A DNA stretch of 63,543 bases, the filler included. It is 4 parts of 4 records of this genome, joined end to end, with 100 filler letters (N's around TTAATTAATTAA, not from the genome) between each part and the next. Parts side by side here need not be neighbours in the genome. Positions count along the whole stretch, not along the records: positions 18,995 to 38,914 come from SRR31156797_334; 3 more parts are not named here. One strand, given 5' to 3'. Both the position numbers and the translations under genes were made by a program. Under the pieces are notes generated by a model. It worked only from the letters and a program-made list of their open reading frames with translations, was not told the origin of the DNA and searched no databases. Shown here piece by piece: positions 3,721 through 37,505 of this stretch. Numbering within the stretch: position 1 is the first letter of the stretch; every line of letters starts with the position of its first letter.

Positions 3721-4497
3721 ATGTTAAAAAATAGTGACCTCAAATCAGCTTATTGGTGTGTTGTTTCAGGAAGTGAACTTTGGACAATTGATGGTGGTTT
3801 ACCTTTTGGTACTGCTAAGCAGTTCGATCTTCCAATCAACTCTGCGATCGAAGTTGATCAGCTCAATGGACATCCTGTCTACTGGGTTAATTTTTCCGAT
3901 GTGGATCAAGATCTTGAACTGGCGTCTTTGAGAGATCTGCTGAGTTTTGATGAGGAGACGTTCCTTGCGGCAAGTCGGGCTGTCCAATATGGTCACATGA
4001 GCCAAACGCAGCGGTTTTGTCCTCAGTGTGGTGGCAGAACTTACCTCAACCATCGAGACATGGCGATGCAGTGTCATGATTGTCGTACTCTGCATTATCC
4101 GCGTATCTTCCCATGTATCATCGTAGCGGTACGTAAAGAACAGCAAATATTGCTTGCTCAGCATCCGAAGCATAAAAATGGTATGTACACAGTGATCGCT
4201 GGCTTCTTGGAAGTGGGTGAAACACTAGAGCAGTGTGTTGCTCGAGAAGTTCAGGAAGAGACTGGAATCAAGGTTACCAATATTCGTTATTTTGGTAGTC
4301 AGCCATGGGCATTTCCTTCGAGTATGATGATGGCATTCCTTGCTGACTATGAAAGTGGTGATGTTCGCCCAGATTATAGCGAACTGAGTGATGCTCGGTG
4401 GTTTGGGACTGATAAAATGCCTCCGGTTGCACCGAAAGGAACCATTGCCAGAGCATTGATTGATCATACCGTTGACGCAATTAATAGTGGTAGCTAA
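3721..4497 (+). CDS. nudC: NAD(+) diphosphatase/NADH pyrophosphatase
   Basis: CPQCG..CHDC zinc ribbon, Nudix box [31 protein letters not shown] signature. Confidence 0.97.
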
Positions 4498-33908: not shown

Positions 33909-35081
33909 TCATCCCTCATGCCTTCCCAGGCTCAGGGGAGTATGTGTCCTGTTCAGCAACTCCGAAGTCGCCAGCATCATCACCGCGGCAATGAGGATGA
34001 TAACGGGGTATATATCCATGCCTGTGAGCCGGAGGGCGAATCCCAGGAGGGGCGGGAAGAGGGTGCTCCCCGTGTAGGCGAAGCCCATCTGGTAGCCTAT
34101 CAGCTTCTGGGAGTGTTCCTCGCCGAACCGGGCGGGCGTCTCATGAAGCATGGCCGGGAAAATGGGCGCCAGGCCCAGGCCCGACAGAACAAAGGCCAGT
34201 CCTGTCAGGGCCGCGGGAAGCGGCAGGACAAGCAGTATGATCCCCGAGAGGCTTATCCCTATCCCCGATCTGATAAGCTGCCGGTTGCTCAGAGAGAGGG
34301 ATACGAAGCCGCTCAGGAAGCGTCCCGCCGTGATGCCTCCGTAGTAGAAAGACATCCAGAGGGCGGCCCTGTCCAGGGAAAGCCCTTTCGCCTTTACCAT
34401 AAAGCTGCTCCCCCACAGTCCCAGACCGCTTTCGATGGAACAGTAGAGGAACATGGTGGCAAAGGCCGGCACGGCTCTCTGCATCGACAGGGCCGAGCCC
34501 TCCGACTCCTCCTTCTTTCCCTCTTCGTACCCCTGTTTGCCCCGCCAGAACGGGAGGCTTAGCAGAAGGATCAGGGCCAGGCTCATCTGGATCAGGGAGA
34601 TGTTCTGATACCCTCCGCGCCAGCTGCCGTTCCCCGAGAGGGCCCTCCCCATGATCAGGGGACCCAGGGTGGCGCCCACCCCCCAGAATGAGTGGAGCCA
34701 GTTCATGTGCCGGGCCTTGTAGTTGAGGGCCACGTAGTTGTTCAGGGCCGTATCCACCGCTCCCCCGCCCAGCCCCAGGGGGACGGCCAGGAGCAGGAGG
34801 ATGCCGAAGGAGGGGGCCAGGGAGAAGCCCAGCAGGGTGACGGCTGTGATCAGGGCGCTGACAAAGGTGACCCGCGCCGTCCCCAGGCGGGCGATGACAT
34901 GCCCGCTCAGGAAGCTGGATACGATGGTGCTTCCCACTATGACCATGGAGAGGAGCCCCCCCGTGCTGAGGAGGATGTTCTGTCCGGCGCAGATCGCCGG
35001 CAGGGCCGCACCCAGTATGGAGTCGGGGAGGCCCAGGCTGATAAACGCCAGATAGATAATAACTAGGATCAGTACGGTCAT
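33909..35081 (-). CDS. MFS transporter (FucP-like)
   Basis: ISLGLPDS, DTALNNYVA, WLHSFWGVGAT, 12 TM helices. Confidence 0.9.
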   Translation of the reverse strand: MTVLILVIIYLAFISLGLPDSILGAALPAICAGQNILLSTGGLLSMVIVGSTIVSSFLSGHVIARLGTARVTFVSALITAVTLLGFSLAPSFGILLLLAVPLGLGGGAVDTALNNYVALNYKARHMNWLHSFWGVGATLGPLIMGRALSGNGSWRGGYQNISLIQMSLALILLLSLPFWRGKQGYEEGKKEESEGSALSMQRAVPAFATMFLYCSIESGLGLWGSSFMVKAKGLSLDRAALWMSFYYGGITAGRFLSGFVSLSLSNRQLIRSGIGISLSGIILLVLPLPAALTGLAFVLSGLGLAPIFPAMLHETPARFGEEHSQKLIGYQMGFAYTGSTLFPPLLGFALRLTGMDIYPVIILIAAVMMLATSELLNRTHTPLSLGRHEG

Positions 35082-35139
35082 TGCGTTCTCCTATAAAAAG
35101 TCAACCATAAGCTCAAAAGGTACTTACAGTTGAACTGGT

Positions 35140-36252
35140 TTAACCAGCTTTCACGGCGTTCCATGCAGCCGCTTGCATTTCCAGATATTTCTTATCAGGA
35201 GCCATTCTCAAAGGATCAAATGGCTCTCTTGTTTTCAGCATCATGTAAACGATGGAGCTCATCTTTCTGGCTGTAGCAATAATGCTCTGGCCACTGCCTT
35301 TTGCTTTCTTCATGACCCGGTATTTACTCATAATCCTGTATTCACCGGTTTTCTTGCTGTTTCGGACCATTCCCAAGACACTTTGCACCATTGCCGTTCT
35401 CAGTTCCTCTGGTCCCCTCTTAGTTATATGCCCATGATGTATCGTTTCATTTGAATTCTGAACCCAGGGAGCAAGGCCTATGTAAGAGGCAAACTTTTTT
35501 GGACTGTCGTACCGGGAGATATCATCCATATAGGCCCTAATCGTGGAGGCTGTGATGATCCCGACTCCTGGAATCGTCATCAAAAGCTCTACATCTTCAT
35601 CATTCTCTACCAAGCTGAGGATTACTTTCTCCAGATTCTTGACCTGCGCCGATAACTGGTCTATCGTTTCAAACAGCGGTTCTACCGCTTTGGCAGCGCC
35701 TCCGATATACCTATGGTCCGCGAGACCCTCAAGGATGCGCTGCCTTTCTTTTTTACTCTGCAGCTCTCCTCTCTTGCTCTCGATCCCATACCCCAACAGA
35801 AGCCCGTGTATCTGGTTCTTCACACTCACCATGGTTCTAACCAGTAGCGTTCTGGTTTTAAGTACTCGCCGAAGGTCTTCGCTCTCCTGTGAACATAAAA
35901 CCGATTCGGGGAGCATCCCTTTCTCAAGGAACTCGGCGAGTGTTCGGGCATCATGCTTGTCGGTCTTTTTCACCGATTCATTCACAACCTTGAACTTCAG
36001 GGTATTCACGACGGTTACATCGATGCCTGCCCTGAGCAGCCTGTTCCTGAAATACCTGGCATTGCCCGTGGACTCGACGGCTGTCGATACCTCATACCCC
36101 TCTTCCGTAAACTCTCCGGTCTTGGCAAGAAACTCTTCAATTCCCTTTTCACTGACCGGGTACATTCCCGATCCCTGAACCTTTCGACTCTCTCCCAGAA
36201 AACACACGGTGAATTGGGTTTTGTGCAGATCCACTCCGATACTCATCTTCAT
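35140..36252 (-). CDS. IS110-family DEDD recombinase/transposase
   Basis: GVDLHK, VEST, KTDKHDA (DEDD RuvC-like); IPGVG and GLAP..NS (Tnp domain serine). Confidence 0.96.
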   Translation of the reverse strand: MKMSIGVDLHKTQFTVCFLGESRKVQGSGMYPVSEKGIEEFLAKTGEFTEEGYEVSTAVESTGNARYFRNRLLRAGIDVTVVNTLKFKVVNESVKKTDKHDARTLAEFLEKGMLPESVLCSQESEDLRRVLKTRTLLVRTMVSVKNQIHGLLLGYGIESKRGELQSKKERQRILEGLADHRYIGGAAKAVEPLFETIDQLSAQVKNLEKVILSLVENDEDVELLMTIPGVGIITASTIRAYMDDISRYDSPKKFASYIGLAPWVQNSNETIHHGHITKRGPEELRTAMVQSVLGMVRNSKKTGEYRIMSKYRVMKKAKGSGQSIIATARKMSSIVYMMLKTREPFDPLRMAPDKKYLEMQAAAWNAVKAG

Positions 36253-36264
36253 CTTCGACTCCTG

Positions 36265-36445
36265 TCGTTTGAACAGCGCCTTTACGGTGAATTGATTCCA
36301 TTCTCCTATTCGGTCTCGCAGACCATTGAATGTTCCGGTTACGGCTCTTCATTCTCCTTTACGGTCTCGCAGACCAGTAGCAATGGCGAACAATAACCTG
36401 CTGTATCAAACTGGGTTTAATACAGTTTATCAATCCACAAGCCTA
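36265..36445 (-). ncRNA. Putative IS110 bridge RNA; ends approximate
   Basis: Two 27-nt repeats (36299-36325, 36350-36376; 25/27 identical) each with a GGTCT-GCG-AGACC hairpin; variable parts match target and donor junctions. Confidence 0.75.
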
Positions 36446-36476
36446 TGATGACTTTTTATCATTCCTCCTTTACTCG

Positions 36477-37505
36477 CTATGAATAGACGCGTCTCACGAC
36501 CTCAAAGCCGCAGGACATCTTCTGAAGGGCCATAAACTGAAGGCCTCTGATATAGCAGAAGTGGATATCCTCTTCGAAGATCAGCCGGGGGCAGTGGCCC
36601 GGAGGGGCCGCATGCCTTAGCAGCTGTTCGATGCTGGCTCTGAACTCCCGGTCGAAGAGCTCTCCCGTCAGGACCACCGTCTCCGGATTGATGACGCAGT
36701 TGATGGAGAGGATGGTGTTGATCACCAGCTCCCTGAAGACTATGACGTTCTTCTGGGCCGATCCCTGCAGGGTTCTGTCCAGGACCTGGGGCAGATGGGA
36801 TATCTCCCCGGCAAAGTCTGAAGCCCCGTGTATGATCCGGCCGTTGATCACGATGCCCGCACCCGCGTTACCCTCCCGGGGATAGTAGAGATAGGCCAGG
36901 CTCTCCGCTTTTATGTCCTTCTGATGATGGTAGTAGCCCAGGGCGGCGCAGTTTACGTCGTTTCCCACGAGAACCGGCCTCTTCCATTTTTCTGAGAGGT
37001 ACTCGCTCAGGGGAAGATGGCTGAGCTTTTCTAAGTCGCAGAGCCCCGTCGATCCTTCCTGAACCACCCCGGGAACGCCCAGTGCGATGACTCCCAGGGC
37101 AGGTACGGCGGCGGTCATAGCTTCGATCTCCCGGTCCAGGACTTCCAGATCGATCTCTTCATAGCCTTCAAGGTTTTCATAGCTCTTCTCTCCCGCCATA
37201 TTGAGTACGGTGCTGTACAGGGTTTTCCTCTTCCCCTCTATCCGGGGGTAGAGGAGAGCTATATGGGCGTGGTTCGGGTTGTATACGAAGCGGCGGGAGG
37301 GCCTGCCGCCTGTGGAATCGGCCAGATCTATCTCCCGGGCCTCTTCCGCATCGCAGAGTTCGTTCAGTATGGTCCGGCAGGTTCCCGGACTCAGTCCTGT
37401 TTCCCGGGCTATTTCATCCTTGGTGGACGCGTCCCTCTCTTTCAGGGCGCTGCGCACCAGCTCTCTGTTCAATTCTTTTATCTGCGCCGTGTTCATGCCG
37501 TCCAT
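36477..37505 (-). CDS. ROK family transcriptional regulator
   Basis: N-terminal HTH, STGGRP, GVPG, NDVNCAALG, FAGEI. Confidence 0.92.
   Translation of the reverse strand: MDGMNTAQIKELNRELVRSALKERDASTKDEIARETGLSPGTCRTILNELCDAEEAREIDLADSTGGRPSRRFVYNPNHAHIALLYPRIEGKRKTLYSTVLNMAGEKSYENLEGYEEIDLEVLDREIEAMTAAVPALGVIALGVPGVVQEGSTGLCDLEKLSHLPLSEYLSEKWKRPVLVGNDVNCAALGYYHHQKDIKAESLAYLYYPREGNAGAGIVINGRIIHGASDFAGEISHLPQVLDRTLQGSAQKNVIVFRELVINTILSINCVINPETVVLTGELFDREFRASIEQLLRHAAPPGHCPRLIFEEDIHFCYIRGLQFMALQKMSCGFEVVRRVYS

Follow-up and report, generated by a model that had tools for sequence, protein, structure and literature searches.

The described systems most like the element analyzed here include IS621 and the insertion sequences of the IS1111 group, and our statements on both follow excerpts of the papers cited. 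In IS621, a guide module uses its 5' side to pair with 8-9 nt of the bottom strand and its 3' side for 4-7 nt of the top strand (Durrant et al. 2024, PMC11208160). The seekRNAs of IS1111-type elements, including ISEc11, ISKpn4, ISPa11 and ISPst6, carry the top-strand-complementary segment 5' of the bottom-strand-complementary one (Siddiquee et al. 2024, PMC11187229). According to the same excerpts, the RNA gene lies downstream in "almost all" members of the IS1111 family, with a few exceptions such as ISMtsp17 (PMC11187229). Solved structures were found in our structure search only for IS621 and ISCro4. A 2026 preprint, in its excerpted part, reports 86 covariance models that cover 32,190 bridge RNAs, with many non-canonical ones among them; given a set that broad, the gene-start-homing family proposed below may already be catalogued.

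Here, we report the analysis of an IS110-superfamily insertion sequence of 1,377 bp, present in one copy in the window (the whole stretch of DNA analyzed, 63,543 nucleotides including filler). The minus strand at 36445-36265 is very probably the core of the bridge/seek RNA gene of this element, which sits in the Shine-Dalgarno sequence of an MFS transporter gene, and the element is a real, unusually legible variant of an already known RNA-guided mechanism. Its boundaries are established: it spans 36464-35090, with an AG core at each junction, is inserted inside the Shine-Dalgarno sequence and is co-oriented with the MFS gene. In run X4, which comes from a related organism, one contig shows the corresponding empty site, joining 35082 to 36529 with 71 letters replacing 1,446. 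The features of the locus are collected in Table 1.

Table 1. Features of the element and of its insertion site, in window coordinates and in the order in which they are read on the minus strand. TBL, target-binding loop; DBL, donor-binding loop.
Feature	Position	Strand	Remarks
Left target half-site AAAGGAG	36465..36471	(-)	LT positions -7..-3 plus AG core 36466-36465; Shine-Dalgarno of the interrupted MFS gene; identical to the TBL 3' guide
Left end of element	36449..36464	(-)	GAATG (36464-36460; right-donor half-site, first 5 nt of the element) plus left subterminal inverted repeat ATAAAAAGTCA (36459-36449)
Upstream hairpin	36401..36425	(-)	Arms 36425-36415 and 36411-36401
TBL outer stem, 5' strand GGTTATTGTTC	36388..36398	(-)	Covariation
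TBL 5' single strand GCCATTGCTAC	36377..36387	(-)	Proposed right-target (top-strand) guide; covariation with right flank
TBL inner hairpin TGGTCTGCGAGACCG	36362..36376	(-)	5 pairs, 100% paired, 4 changed on both sides
TBL 3' guide AAAGGAG	36354..36360	(-)	Match to own left flank vs shuffled pairing
TBL outer stem, 3' strand GAGCCGTAACC	36337..36347	(-)	Covariation
Donor loop 5' guide CATTC (right-donor guide)	36328..36332	(-)	Complementary to top strand, first 5 nt of the element
DBL hairpin TGGTCTGCGAGACCG	36311..36325	(-)	4 pairs, 100% paired, 3 changed on both sides
DBL 3' guide ATAGGAG (left-donor guide)	36303..36309	(-)	Equals the terminal 7 nt of the element with its core (35094-35088)
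P1 3' strand CTGTTCAAA	36268..36276	(-)	Closes the two-loop RNA; RNAalifold
Recombinase ribosome-binding site	36264-36258	(-)	Follows P1 3' strand
Recombinase gene, 370 aa, intact	35140..36252	(-)	PF01548 + PF02371; NF033542
Right end of element	35088..35104	(-)	-35-like TTGACT (35104-35099), right subterminal inverted repeat TGACTTTTTAT (35103-35093; 11-nt perfect match to left repeat), 3-bp extension AGG (35092-35090), core AG (35089-35088)
Right target flank AACGCA + MFS ATG	35079..35087	(-)	Start codon 35081-35079, 6 nt past the core

The recombinase scores 73.9 bits against PF01548 and 76.3 bits against PF02371 (DEDD/RuvC-like N-terminal domain and C-terminal domain, respectively), and its residues 5-344 match the NCBIfam model NF033542, "IS110 family RNA-guided transposase", with 231.6 bits (cut-off 140). 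The catalytic D, E, D and D and the serine of G-L-x-P-x4-S align with the ISCro4/IS621 chains, in an alignment that is weak in the N-terminal part (7.5 bits) and reaches 45-46 bits in the C-terminal part. The serine of this G-x-x-P-x4-S motif we take to be the nucleophile.

Relatives were collected in a scan of genome contigs, which found 97 among 180 candidate stretches (the best 80 of the 97 were used), and in a scan of metagenomes, which found 320 among 480 (the best 80 of the 320 were used). Both ends could be located by motif in 126 of the resulting 161 sequences (160 loci and the window). Among these 126 elements are 86 distinct non-coding regions; their unique complete sites number 106 and fall into 65 RNA classes, and guides were evaluated by comparing the match of each RNA to its own site with the match under shuffled RNA-site pairing. 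The loci collected include distant relatives, L059-L080, at 32-37% identity, and a copy with 71.5% identity is carried by plasmid pSpe of Thiospirochaeta perfilievii. The long non-coding region with the RNA gene lies upstream of the recombinase ORF in the window, as in every one of the 126 relatives with both ends; in the window, it measures 212 nt, vs 52 nt downstream. The 106 sites are all survivors of selection, and selection against gene-disrupting insertions therefore adds to the gene-start bias described below.

The inverted repeats of the two ends change jointly in the L051 group of relatives and in L123, and the right end TTGACTTTTTATAGGAG is kept across relatives. In the window, the end of the right repeat, the AGG extension and the AG core rebuild a Shine-Dalgarno sequence, ATAGGAG. 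The 2-nt core is established, and strand exchange is placed within AG because L156/L157 at -3, and L133 and L143 at -4, have different bases in left flank and right end, and because the first base past the element varies among sites. A consensus scan of the integrated element found no internal minus-strand promoter or terminator; host read-through would supply expression in the integrated state. At the junction of the excised circle, TTGACT, 17 nt and TAAAAA with an upstream TG would form a promoter, for which TGATAAAAA in the left end is a possible extended -10.

The first-pass annotation had described two 27-nt repeats in the non-coding region, and the repeat search finds them at 36299-36325 and 36350-36376, with 25/27 positions identical (93%) and a start-to-start spacing of 51 nt. 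The 15-nt hairpin core TGGTCTGCGAGACCG has exactly two occurrences, and with up to two mismatches allowed there are three matches in the window vs 0.14 expected, a number that 0/100 shuffles reached. The RNA helices are established by covariation. In 68 sequences, the nine pairs of the outer stem of loop 1 are formed in 97.7% of cells, with four pairs changed on both sides; for this stem and for both hairpins (97.7-100% paired), the covariation score was reached by 0/500 shuffles. One pair of the donor hairpin is GC in 41 sequences and AU in 27, another is UA in 44 and CG in 21. Two closing helices emerge from these comparisons, namely the 9-bp outer stem of loop 1 and a long-range helix, P1, around both loops. 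RNAalifold, run on 38 sequences, forms P1 by pairing 36409-36401 with 36276-36268, with both-side changes in 8/9 pairs; the 36409-36401 strand alternatively serves as the 3' arm of the upstream hairpin.

Two earlier structural proposals fared less well. The CATT..AATG closing stems are paired in 75% (loop 1) and 92% (loop 2) of cases, with no pair changed on both sides. The supposed recent duplication of the loops gives way to an old one, relatives keeping both loops with different, individually compensated hairpins (for example, the GC 41/AU 27 pair). For CAUUC of the donor loop, a first candidate partner within the RNA is 92% paired without double changes and a second is 77% paired and has double changes at three pairs; neither makes a convincing closure of the donor module. 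A single-sequence fold (z = -2.65) that cross-pairs the two hairpins was discarded, being contradicted by the hairpin covariation. So was the idea that a third, antisense hairpin with an AGGA motif inside the recombinase gene is a hidden guide, since covariation between its variable triplet and the target guide is absent (1998/10000 shuffles reach the observed score). A search of Rfam with 34800-36800 at E up to 10 returned chance-level matches only, so that no curated family model stands behind the bridge/seek RNA call.

The assignment of loop 1 to the target and of loop 2 to the donor, made at first reading from the window, is borne out by covariation of the guides with flanks and ends in relatives, and three of the four guide-DNA covariations are established. 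In loop 2, ATAGGAG (36309-36303) had been equated with the right end plus core (35094-35088), an identity that can be read directly and that recurs without mismatch in 84/86 distinct elements; L103 and L038 have a 1-nt mismatch each, and L156/L157 have ATAGAAG in both guide and right end, that is, one joint G-to-A change. The complementarity of CATTC (36332-36328) to GAATG of the left end (36464-36460) had likewise been recognized, and this guide covaries with the left end. Among the 86 distinct non-coding regions, the left end and the 5' donor guide read GTATG/CATAC in 4, GCACG/CGTGC in 4, GCATG/CATGC in 2 and GAGTG/CACTC in 1, with a G-U wobble in 9, and 4.80 Watson-Crick pairs are observed vs 4.45 after shuffling (0/5000 shuffles reach this value). 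In L024, L113, L116 and L121, guide and DNA end changed without a compensating RNA partner. The AAUG that follows each 3' guide was tried as an additional guide for the left end or start codon and rejected, given that its variable second base does not track the left end.

Loop 1 carries GTAAAGGAGAA at 36362-36352, a sequence made up of the left flank GTAAAGGAG (36473-36465) and, after it, the two bases that come first past the element (35087-35086). This 11-nt match to the empty site had been noted before; the identity is present, and relatives support positions -7..-1 of it, whereas -8 is weak (34% match vs 23% shuffled) and -9, +1 and +2 give no signal relative to shuffled pairing among the unique sites of relatives. 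The check suggested at the time, guide/flank covariation in homologous elements, bears the guide out. The 7-nt guide matches its own flank perfectly in 78/106 sites, with one mismatch in 26 and two in 2, vs a mean of 24.3 perfect matches and a maximum of 44 in 1000 shuffles. The signal comes from position -7 (80% vs 39% shuffled), -6 (96% vs 59%) and -5 (97% vs 80%), none of which was reached in 1000 shuffles; GAG at -3..-1 is common to all 106 unique sites, and guide positions -3..-1 are invariant. Natural retargeting is apparent in guides ending CACGGAG, CGCGGAG or AGGGGAG, which adjoin flanks with the same ending.

No right-hand target guide had been evident at first reading, and the 5' strand of loop 1 probably fills this role by reading the spacer and start codon: the complement of CATTGC (36385-36380), GCAATG, stands 4-9 nt past the core, at 35084-35079. 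Anchored at ATG, such guides match their own flanks at 2.46 of 5 positions vs 1.88 shuffled (0/2000 shuffles reach), a cross-family signal for which the base composition of the hosts and the split of one sub-group are partial confounders. The TGC variant of the window matches its own flank and only one other among 90 flanks. The first base of the guide lies opposite +8, +9 or +10 (z 4.1, 3.1 and 3.0), an offset that varies between elements, and the proposed pairing leaves 1-3 nt beside the core unpaired. For the same strand, pairing to the left flank in register -1..-9 (z = 2.8) was traced to short-tandem-repeat targets in one sub-group and set aside. The sites themselves are associated with gene starts: a start codon follows the core by 4-14 nt at 95/106 sites, by 6 nt at 55/106; at 75/106 sites it opens an ORF of 60 codons or more, and 9 further ones are open to the end of the locus. 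One host genome contains 1,462 occurrences of the guide 7-mer ACAGGAG, of which only 171 are followed by ATG at 5-9 nt; all 10 copies found in that genome are at such sites.

We consider it doubtful, and less probable than a guide role, that the loop-1 5' strand (CAU...) is purely structural and pairs with the AAUG after the 3' guide. On this reading, the 7-nt left guide alone would select the site and the gene-start location would be a survivor effect, insertions elsewhere disrupting genes and an insertion that rebuilds the Shine-Dalgarno sequence being nearly neutral. Consistent with it, CAU/AUG forms standard pairs in 65, 61 and 53 of 68 cells at the three positions, the offset of the proposed DNA pairing varies, and the observed sites are all survivors. 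Against it, the CAU/AUG stem lacks any compensatory change in the 68 sequences, and CAU is replaced, with AAUG kept, in the very sub-group that targets sites other than gene starts. Moreover, the 5' strand of L127 is complementary to the 8 nt beside the core (7 Watson-Crick pairs and 1 wobble). In the ACAGGAG host genome, four A/T precede the ATG at 7/8 occupied sites vs 19/171 gene-start-like sites (binomial ~1e-6), and this enrichment counts against a survivor effect because selection for neutrality does not predict it. In a second, AT-richer genome, the enrichment is weak, with an A/T run at 10/15 occupied sites vs 67/185 genome-wide, the latter including the occupied junctions, and this favors the structural alternative.

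Two further alternatives concern the RNA as a whole. That the twin stem-loops are not guides at all, being instead protein-binding hairpins, attenuators or a recent repeat whose likeness to the flank stems from the common AGGAG motif, is very improbable. It would be in keeping with an invariant and common AGGAG, two hairpins identical in the window, a third similar hairpin within the coding region and the lack of an Rfam family match. Such hairpins would not account for variable positions -7..-5 that follow their own flank (0/1000 shuffles), for joint guide/flank changes outside AGGAG (CACGGAG, CGCGGAG, AGGGGAG), for a donor 5' guide that follows the left end, or for relatives whose hairpins are non-identical and separately compensated. 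Marginally less credible still is an IS621-like layout of the two-loop RNA, although the RNA gene lies upstream of the recombinase with the target loop before the donor loop, as excerpts of the IS621 paper describe (PMC11208160), and cross-pairing of the hairpins, as drawn in the single-sequence fold, is conceivable in principle. The covariation backs local hairpins, with AGCC/GGCT vs GACC/GGTC in the L042-L045 group and GGTCT/AGACC vs GATCT/AGATC in the Syntrophales group. Local hairpins place the top-strand-sense 7-mers 3' of each hairpin, and the inverted repeats are of 11 bp, not 2-3 bp.

Taken with the guide assignments above, a two-module RNA read out on both DNA strands suggests the following mechanism. 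The RNA would be made and bound by the recombinase. In the predicted structure, the long-range helix encloses the target stem-loop, composed of outer stem, internal loop and inner hairpin, and the donor hairpin, flanked by single strands. The bottom-strand guides AAAGGAG and AUAGGAG would read the left flank and the right IS end, respectively, and the top-strand guides CAUUC and CAUUGC would read the first 5 nt of the IS and the target spacer with the start codon. On these two near-identical hairpins, the recombinase would unite the excised circle (right end-AG-left end) with a site of the form NNNGGAG-spacer-ATG and exchange strands at AG, by a chemistry presumably like that of IS621, and the right end would then provide the host start codon with a new ATAGGAG.

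We tentatively propose, at somewhat less than even chances, that the element represents a distinct bridge-recombinase lineage with IS1111-type geometry and an RNA gene placed as in IS110-type elements, one that reads the translation initiation region in two parts and rebuilds the split Shine-Dalgarno sequence. If so, the IS1111-type traits would be the 5'-side top-strand guide, the long subterminal repeats and the 7/3-bp extensions, and their combination with that gene position would be the sort of permuted intermediate to expect if, as has been proposed, the RNA gene moved from one end of the element to the other. The target module would read the Shine-Dalgarno sequence on the bottom strand and the spacer and start codon on the top strand across a variable unpaired gap, resulting in a programmable, nearly scar-neutral, operon-embedded element that homes to gene starts. 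Such split, gapped recognition would widen the design rules for bridge recombinases. In the limited literature collection searched for bridge RNA or IS110 together with Shine-Dalgarno or ribosome-binding sites, no paper describing gene-start targeting by a guide RNA was found. From about 100 insertion sites, one can read every one of the four half-sites, the 2-nt core, the guides and cases of natural retargeting, which makes the family a convenient test case for IS1111-type guide geometry, and its mixed organization bears on the relationship between the IS110 and IS1111 groups. The arrangement further suggests a low-cost insertion strategy, with transcription from the host promoter and a new ribosome-binding site for the downstream gene.

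Gene-start targeting would also explain old reports of IS110-family elements at ribosome-binding sites. The IS900-type elements of mycobacteria, members of the IS110 family, insert between ribosome-binding site and start codon in fixed orientation, with the recombinase gene facing away from the target gene, whereas it is co-oriented here; to our knowledge, no guide RNA has been described for them. The "hed" ORF of IS900 depends on host signals, according to an excerpted account (PMC8141618). ISEc21, of the 345-385-aa cluster of the IS110 family, resembles the present element in its upstream non-coding region and recombinase size but, in the excerpted description, places the top-strand match 3' of the bottom-strand one and lacks long subterminal repeats (PMC11187229).

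As far as the excerpted papers describe IS621, the shared traits are an RNA gene in a long left end with a short right end, two modules with the target first (PMC11208160; Hiraizumi et al. 2024, PMC11208158), readout of both DNA strands around a 2-nt core by each module, bottom-strand guides that include the core, and a recombinase with the DEDD residues and serine. Alignment with the IS621 protein covers only the C-terminal domain (E ~1e-13). Here, unlike in IS621 as described, the guide sides are swapped in both modules, the core is AG instead of CT, the inverted repeats are long (11 bp vs 2-3 bp), no core is visible in the top-strand guides, right-target pairing has a variable offset with 1-3 nt beside the core unpaired, and the donor module does not form a closed internal loop within a stem of its own. 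The position of the guides on the 3' side had been called unusual at first reading; it does differ from IS621 (PMC11208160) but is the published IS1111-type order in the excerpted account (PMC11187229).

From IS1111 elements, as excerpted, the present one differs in its upstream RNA gene (212 nt vs 52 nt downstream), in recombinase length (370 aa vs 330-350 aa), in S-N instead of S/T-G after the conserved G-L-x-P, and in its target, a gene start here and attC sites, Tn21 inverted repeats or REP sequences there. Similarity to IS4321 is limited to 26.5% identity over residues 5-291 (E 3e-8), and unclassified IS110-family matches score as well. The likenesses to the same excerpted descriptions lie in the guide order, which is firm for the donor module and the target bottom-strand guide and probable for the target top-strand guide; in perfect 11-bp subterminal inverted repeats (~11-13 bp in the IS1111 group); in terminal extensions of 7 bp (left, AG+GAATG) and 3 bp (right, AGG), provided that the ambiguous AG is assigned to the left; in a target duplication limited to the shared dinucleotide; and in abutted ends that can form a -35/-10 pair.

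The first-pass annotation had read the non-coding stretch upstream of the recombinase gene as a bridge RNA gene with a target-binding loop (loop 1) and a donor-binding loop (loop 2). Comparison with relatives shows that this identification was right in kind, with corrections to the stems, the duplication of the loops and the extent of the guides. Both IS110 Pfam domains are present in the 370-aa recombinase (Pfam search), and the NCBIfam model NF033542 ("IS110 family RNA-guided transposase", cut-off 140) gives it 231.6 bits. Its D, E, D, D and conserved Ser residues align with those of the solved IS621 and ISCro4 recombinases. Strong alignment to these two is limited to the C-terminal domain (E ~1e-13), and identity to plasmid-borne IS110-family proteins, including IS4321, is only 22-28%.

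Coordinates of the element's features and neighbours
Feature	Position	Strand	Remark
ROK-family regulator gene	ends 36477	minus	5' neighbour of element
Perfect 11-bp inverted repeat	36459-36449 and 35103-35093	minus	just inside both ends (repeat search)
Two 27-nt repeats	36350-36376 and 36299-36325	minus	25/27 identical, 51 nt apart
Perfect 11-nt direct repeat CAATTCACCGT	36284-36294 and 36206-36216	minus	repeat search
Recombinase ORF, 370 aa	36252-35140	minus	between ROK-family regulator and MFS transporter genes
Third hairpin-like copy, TGGTCCGCGAGACC then CTCAAGGA	35713-35735	+	antisense inside recombinase gene
MFS transporter gene	start 35081	minus	3' neighbour of element

The left junction runs from GTAAAGGAG into GAATGATAAAAAGTCA, with which the element begins, and the right junction from TTGACTTTTTATAGGAG, with which it stops, into AACGCAATG. 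Scans of genome contigs gave 97 relatives in 180 candidate stretches (best 80 of 97 used), and scans of metagenome contigs 320 in 480 (best 80 of 320 used). Both end motifs were found in 126 of 161 sequences (160 loci and the window), the other 35 being mostly truncated contigs and a distant set, L059-L080 (32-37% identity). From the 126 two-ended elements come 86 distinct non-coding regions and, where both flanks are complete, 106 unique sites. GAG at -3 to -1 is invariant across these sites. The left flank may disagree with the right end at -3 (L156/L157) and -4 (L133, L143), and the first base 3' of the element varies between sites; the core common to both junctions is therefore the dinucleotide AG. 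In a contig of sequencing run X4, from a related organism, 71 letters stand where the window has 1,446 between 35082 and 36529, which fits an empty site without the ~1,377 bp. In the compared contigs of runs X1-X4, the probable source run holds the ends of at least two further diverged copies adjoining other flanks. Runs of a second organism hold several element variants, one of them abundant, with the common 5' strand CATGTTTTC against the window's CATTGCTAC.

The twin repeats described in the first-pass annotation are present, and so are the identities it gave, of 11 nt and 7 nt, and its CATTC/GAATG complementarity. The 15-nt hairpin core of the repeats has exactly two exact copies; when up to two mismatches are allowed, the window holds three, where 0.14 would be expected. 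RNAalifold and pair counts over 68 sequences support a 9-bp outer stem of loop 1 (97.7% paired, four pairs changed on both sides) and hairpins in loop 1 and loop 2 (each 100% paired, with four and three such pairs, respectively); the observed covariation was reached by none of 500 shuffles. The CATT/AATG stems proposed earlier show zero compensatory change among relatives. The loops had also been taken for a recent duplication, but relatives keep two hairpins that are unlike each other and separately compensated (AGCC/GGCT versus GACC/GGTC; GGTCT/AGACC versus GATCT/AGATC); the duplication is therefore old. The same separate compensation rules against a cross-paired single-sequence fold as the conserved structure. 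Both modules are enclosed by a long-range 9-bp helix (36409-36401 with 36276-36268), in which eight of nine pairs are changed on both sides (38 sequences). Its 5' strand has an alternative partner at 36425-36415 in an upstream hairpin (36401-36425, 3' arm); the two pairings are mutually exclusive and could switch between an mRNA form and a guide-RNA form.

The 3' strand of loop 1 tracks the left flank. It agrees with its own flank at -7 in 80% of cases (39% after shuffling), at -6 in 96% (59%) and at -5 in 97% (80%). Of the 11-nt match noted earlier, only the central seven nucleotides are supported as guide: the signal at -8 is weak (34% against 23%, with 87 of 1000 shuffles as high), and own versus shuffled RNA-site pairing gave none at -9, +1 or +2. 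Guide/flank covariation among homologous elements, suggested earlier as a check, was found: the 7-nt guide matches its own site perfectly at 78 of 106 sites, with one mismatch at 26 and two at 2, against a mean of 24.3 and a maximum of 44 perfect matches under shuffling. There are 12 different guide 7-mers, including CACGGAG, CGCGGAG, AGGGGAG and TTGAGAG, beside flanks that end the same or nearly so, a case of natural reprogramming.

No right-hand target guide had been evident from the window, where the 5' strand of loop 1 offers a candidate, CAUUGC, complementary to GCAATG, which spans the MFS start codon and the three spacer bases before it. Across families, right-flank complementarity peaks with the first guide base opposite +8, +9 and +10 (z 4.1, 3.1 and 3.0). 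Anchored on the ATG, own pairs average 2.46 of 5 matches versus 1.88 shuffled, a value reached by none of 2000 shuffles. In seven elements with non-gene-start targets, CAU is lost and the strand is complementary to their own repeat-type flanks.

For the donor loop, the 3' strand equals the right end perfectly over 7 nt in 84 of 86 distinct elements; in L156/L157 guide and right end have changed jointly, and L103 and L038 carry one mismatch each. The 5' CAUUC, already proposed as the left-end donor guide, is complementary to left-end GAATG and covaries with it: GTATG/CATAC and GCACG/CGTGC in four non-coding regions each, GCATG/CATGC in two, GAGTG/CACTC in one and a G-U wobble in nine, with a mismatch in five elements (86 distinct regions; score reached by 0 of 5000 shuffles). 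In L024, L113, L116 and L121 this strand has changed and no RNA partner changes alongside, so its partner is the DNA.

IS900-type elements are known from the older literature to target ribosome-binding sites. Here, a start codon lies 4-14 nt past the core at 95 of 106 sites, and at 55 the gap from core to ATG is exactly 6 nt. At 75 sites this start codon opens an ORF of 60 codons or more, and at 9 more the frame is open to the locus end; 11 have short ORFs and 11 no start codon. All elements are co-oriented with the target gene, and the right end puts ATAGGAG before it. An Oceanispirochaeta genome with 10 copies contains 1,462 instances of the guide 7-mer ACAGGAG, 171 of them followed by ATG at 5-9 nt, and all 10 copies occupy gene-start-like sites. 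Four A/T precede the ATG in only 19 of those 171, against 7 of the 8 occupied sites with a flank of exactly ACAGGAG (hand count; binomial probability ~1e-6, hand arithmetic), which fits a putative U-rich top-strand guide, CAUUUUUAC. The difference is smaller in a second genome, which is richer in AT: the A/T run is present at 10 of its 15 occupied sites versus 67 of 185 genome-wide, the latter including the occupied junctions. The gene-start location certainly owes something to survivor bias, which leaves the spacer preference unexplained. For the predicted RNA, the most likely mechanism is guided recombination in which an excised circle (right end-AG-left end) would meet an NNNGGAG-spacer-ATG site and exchange at AG.

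In a metagenomic sub-group away from gene starts (L125, L127, L128, L133, L135, L136, L151, L156-L158), both target-loop strands are rewritten and insertions lie in short tandem repeats with units such as CACGGAG or GCACAGAG; L127 is a tandem element pair with one 8-nt unit between. Six of 15 copies in genome OY776510 (L010, L013, L015, L017, L019, L022) adjoin a left flank ending TTTTATAGGAG, a better match to donor guide ATAGGAG than to target guide TTAGGAG, and five flanks (L014, L015, L021, L022, L039) have CATCCATG-N-GGAA as a common repeat farther upstream. One possibility is that such sites are donor-like or "half-match" targets.

Abutting the ends would place TTGACT 17 nt 5' of TAAAAA, with TG before TAAAAA, a plausible circle-junction promoter by analogy with published elements; this -10 lacks the final T demanded by the consensus scan. 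Since that scan found no minus-strand promoter in the integrated element, expression in place presumably comes from host-gene read-through. Relatives' right ends (for example L010 ~4120-4169, L042 ~1450-1492) carry a conserved GC-containing hairpin directly 5' of TTGACTTTTTAT. It resembles a terminator, which would give insertions a polar effect; the window copy has a degenerate form, in which the scan detected no terminator. L044 has a 29-nt right-end duplication (4120-4178). Over 22 nt, the third hairpin copy has 86% complementarity with the loop-1 hairpin and guide, so pairing between recombinase mRNA and target loop is conceivable. Its motif, whose nucleotides are conserved in 44 of 89 distinct elements, surrounds a hypervariable codon (protein motif R-I-L-x-G-L-x-D-H) whose triplet showed no covariation with the target guide among relatives; autoregulation and a protein-binding decoy are possibilities. 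Of the two CAATTCACCGT copies, the one immediately following the donor loop on its 3' side is conserved in relatives; the other falls in the first recombinase codons.

The family occurs in Spirochaetota, both metagenome-assembled (Oceanispirochaeta, Alkalispirochaeta, Treponema, a Leptospira-labelled genome) and cultured (Thiospirochaeta perfilievii, on plasmid pSpe), and in Desulfobacterota-type bins (Syntrophales, Desulfobacterales). Single short contigs, binned far from these hosts as Dysgonamonadaceae (L050) and Candidatus Gracilibacteria (L026, 2.7 kb), reflect either horizontal spread or mis-binning. A 2026 preprint describes 86 covariance models for 32,190 bridge RNAs, many non-canonical (10.64898/2026.10.21.760802); the present family may already be in its supplements and those of two 2024 papers.

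In the IS110 group the left end is long and the subterminal repeats measure 2-3 bp, whereas in the IS1111 group it is the right end that is long and carries the RNA, and the subterminal repeats are long (PMC11208160). According to Siddiquee et al. (PMC11187229), the IS1111 repeats are 11-13 bp, with extensions of 7 bp on the left and 3 bp on the right; in IS1111-family seekRNAs the match to the top strand comes first, 5' of that to the bottom strand, an order opposite to that of IS110-type ISEc21; and a few members have an upstream non-coding region. The guide side that had seemed unusual beside IS621 is real and is explained by this distinction. The present family resembles IS1111 in guide order, 11-bp subterminal repeat and 7/3 extensions (AG+GAATG; AGG), and differs in its RNA gene upstream of the recombinase gene and in its 370-aa recombinase, with S-N where S/T-G is expected. 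Its remaining interest lies in this hybrid IS110/IS1111 organisation and in the probable two-part reading of translation-initiation regions.
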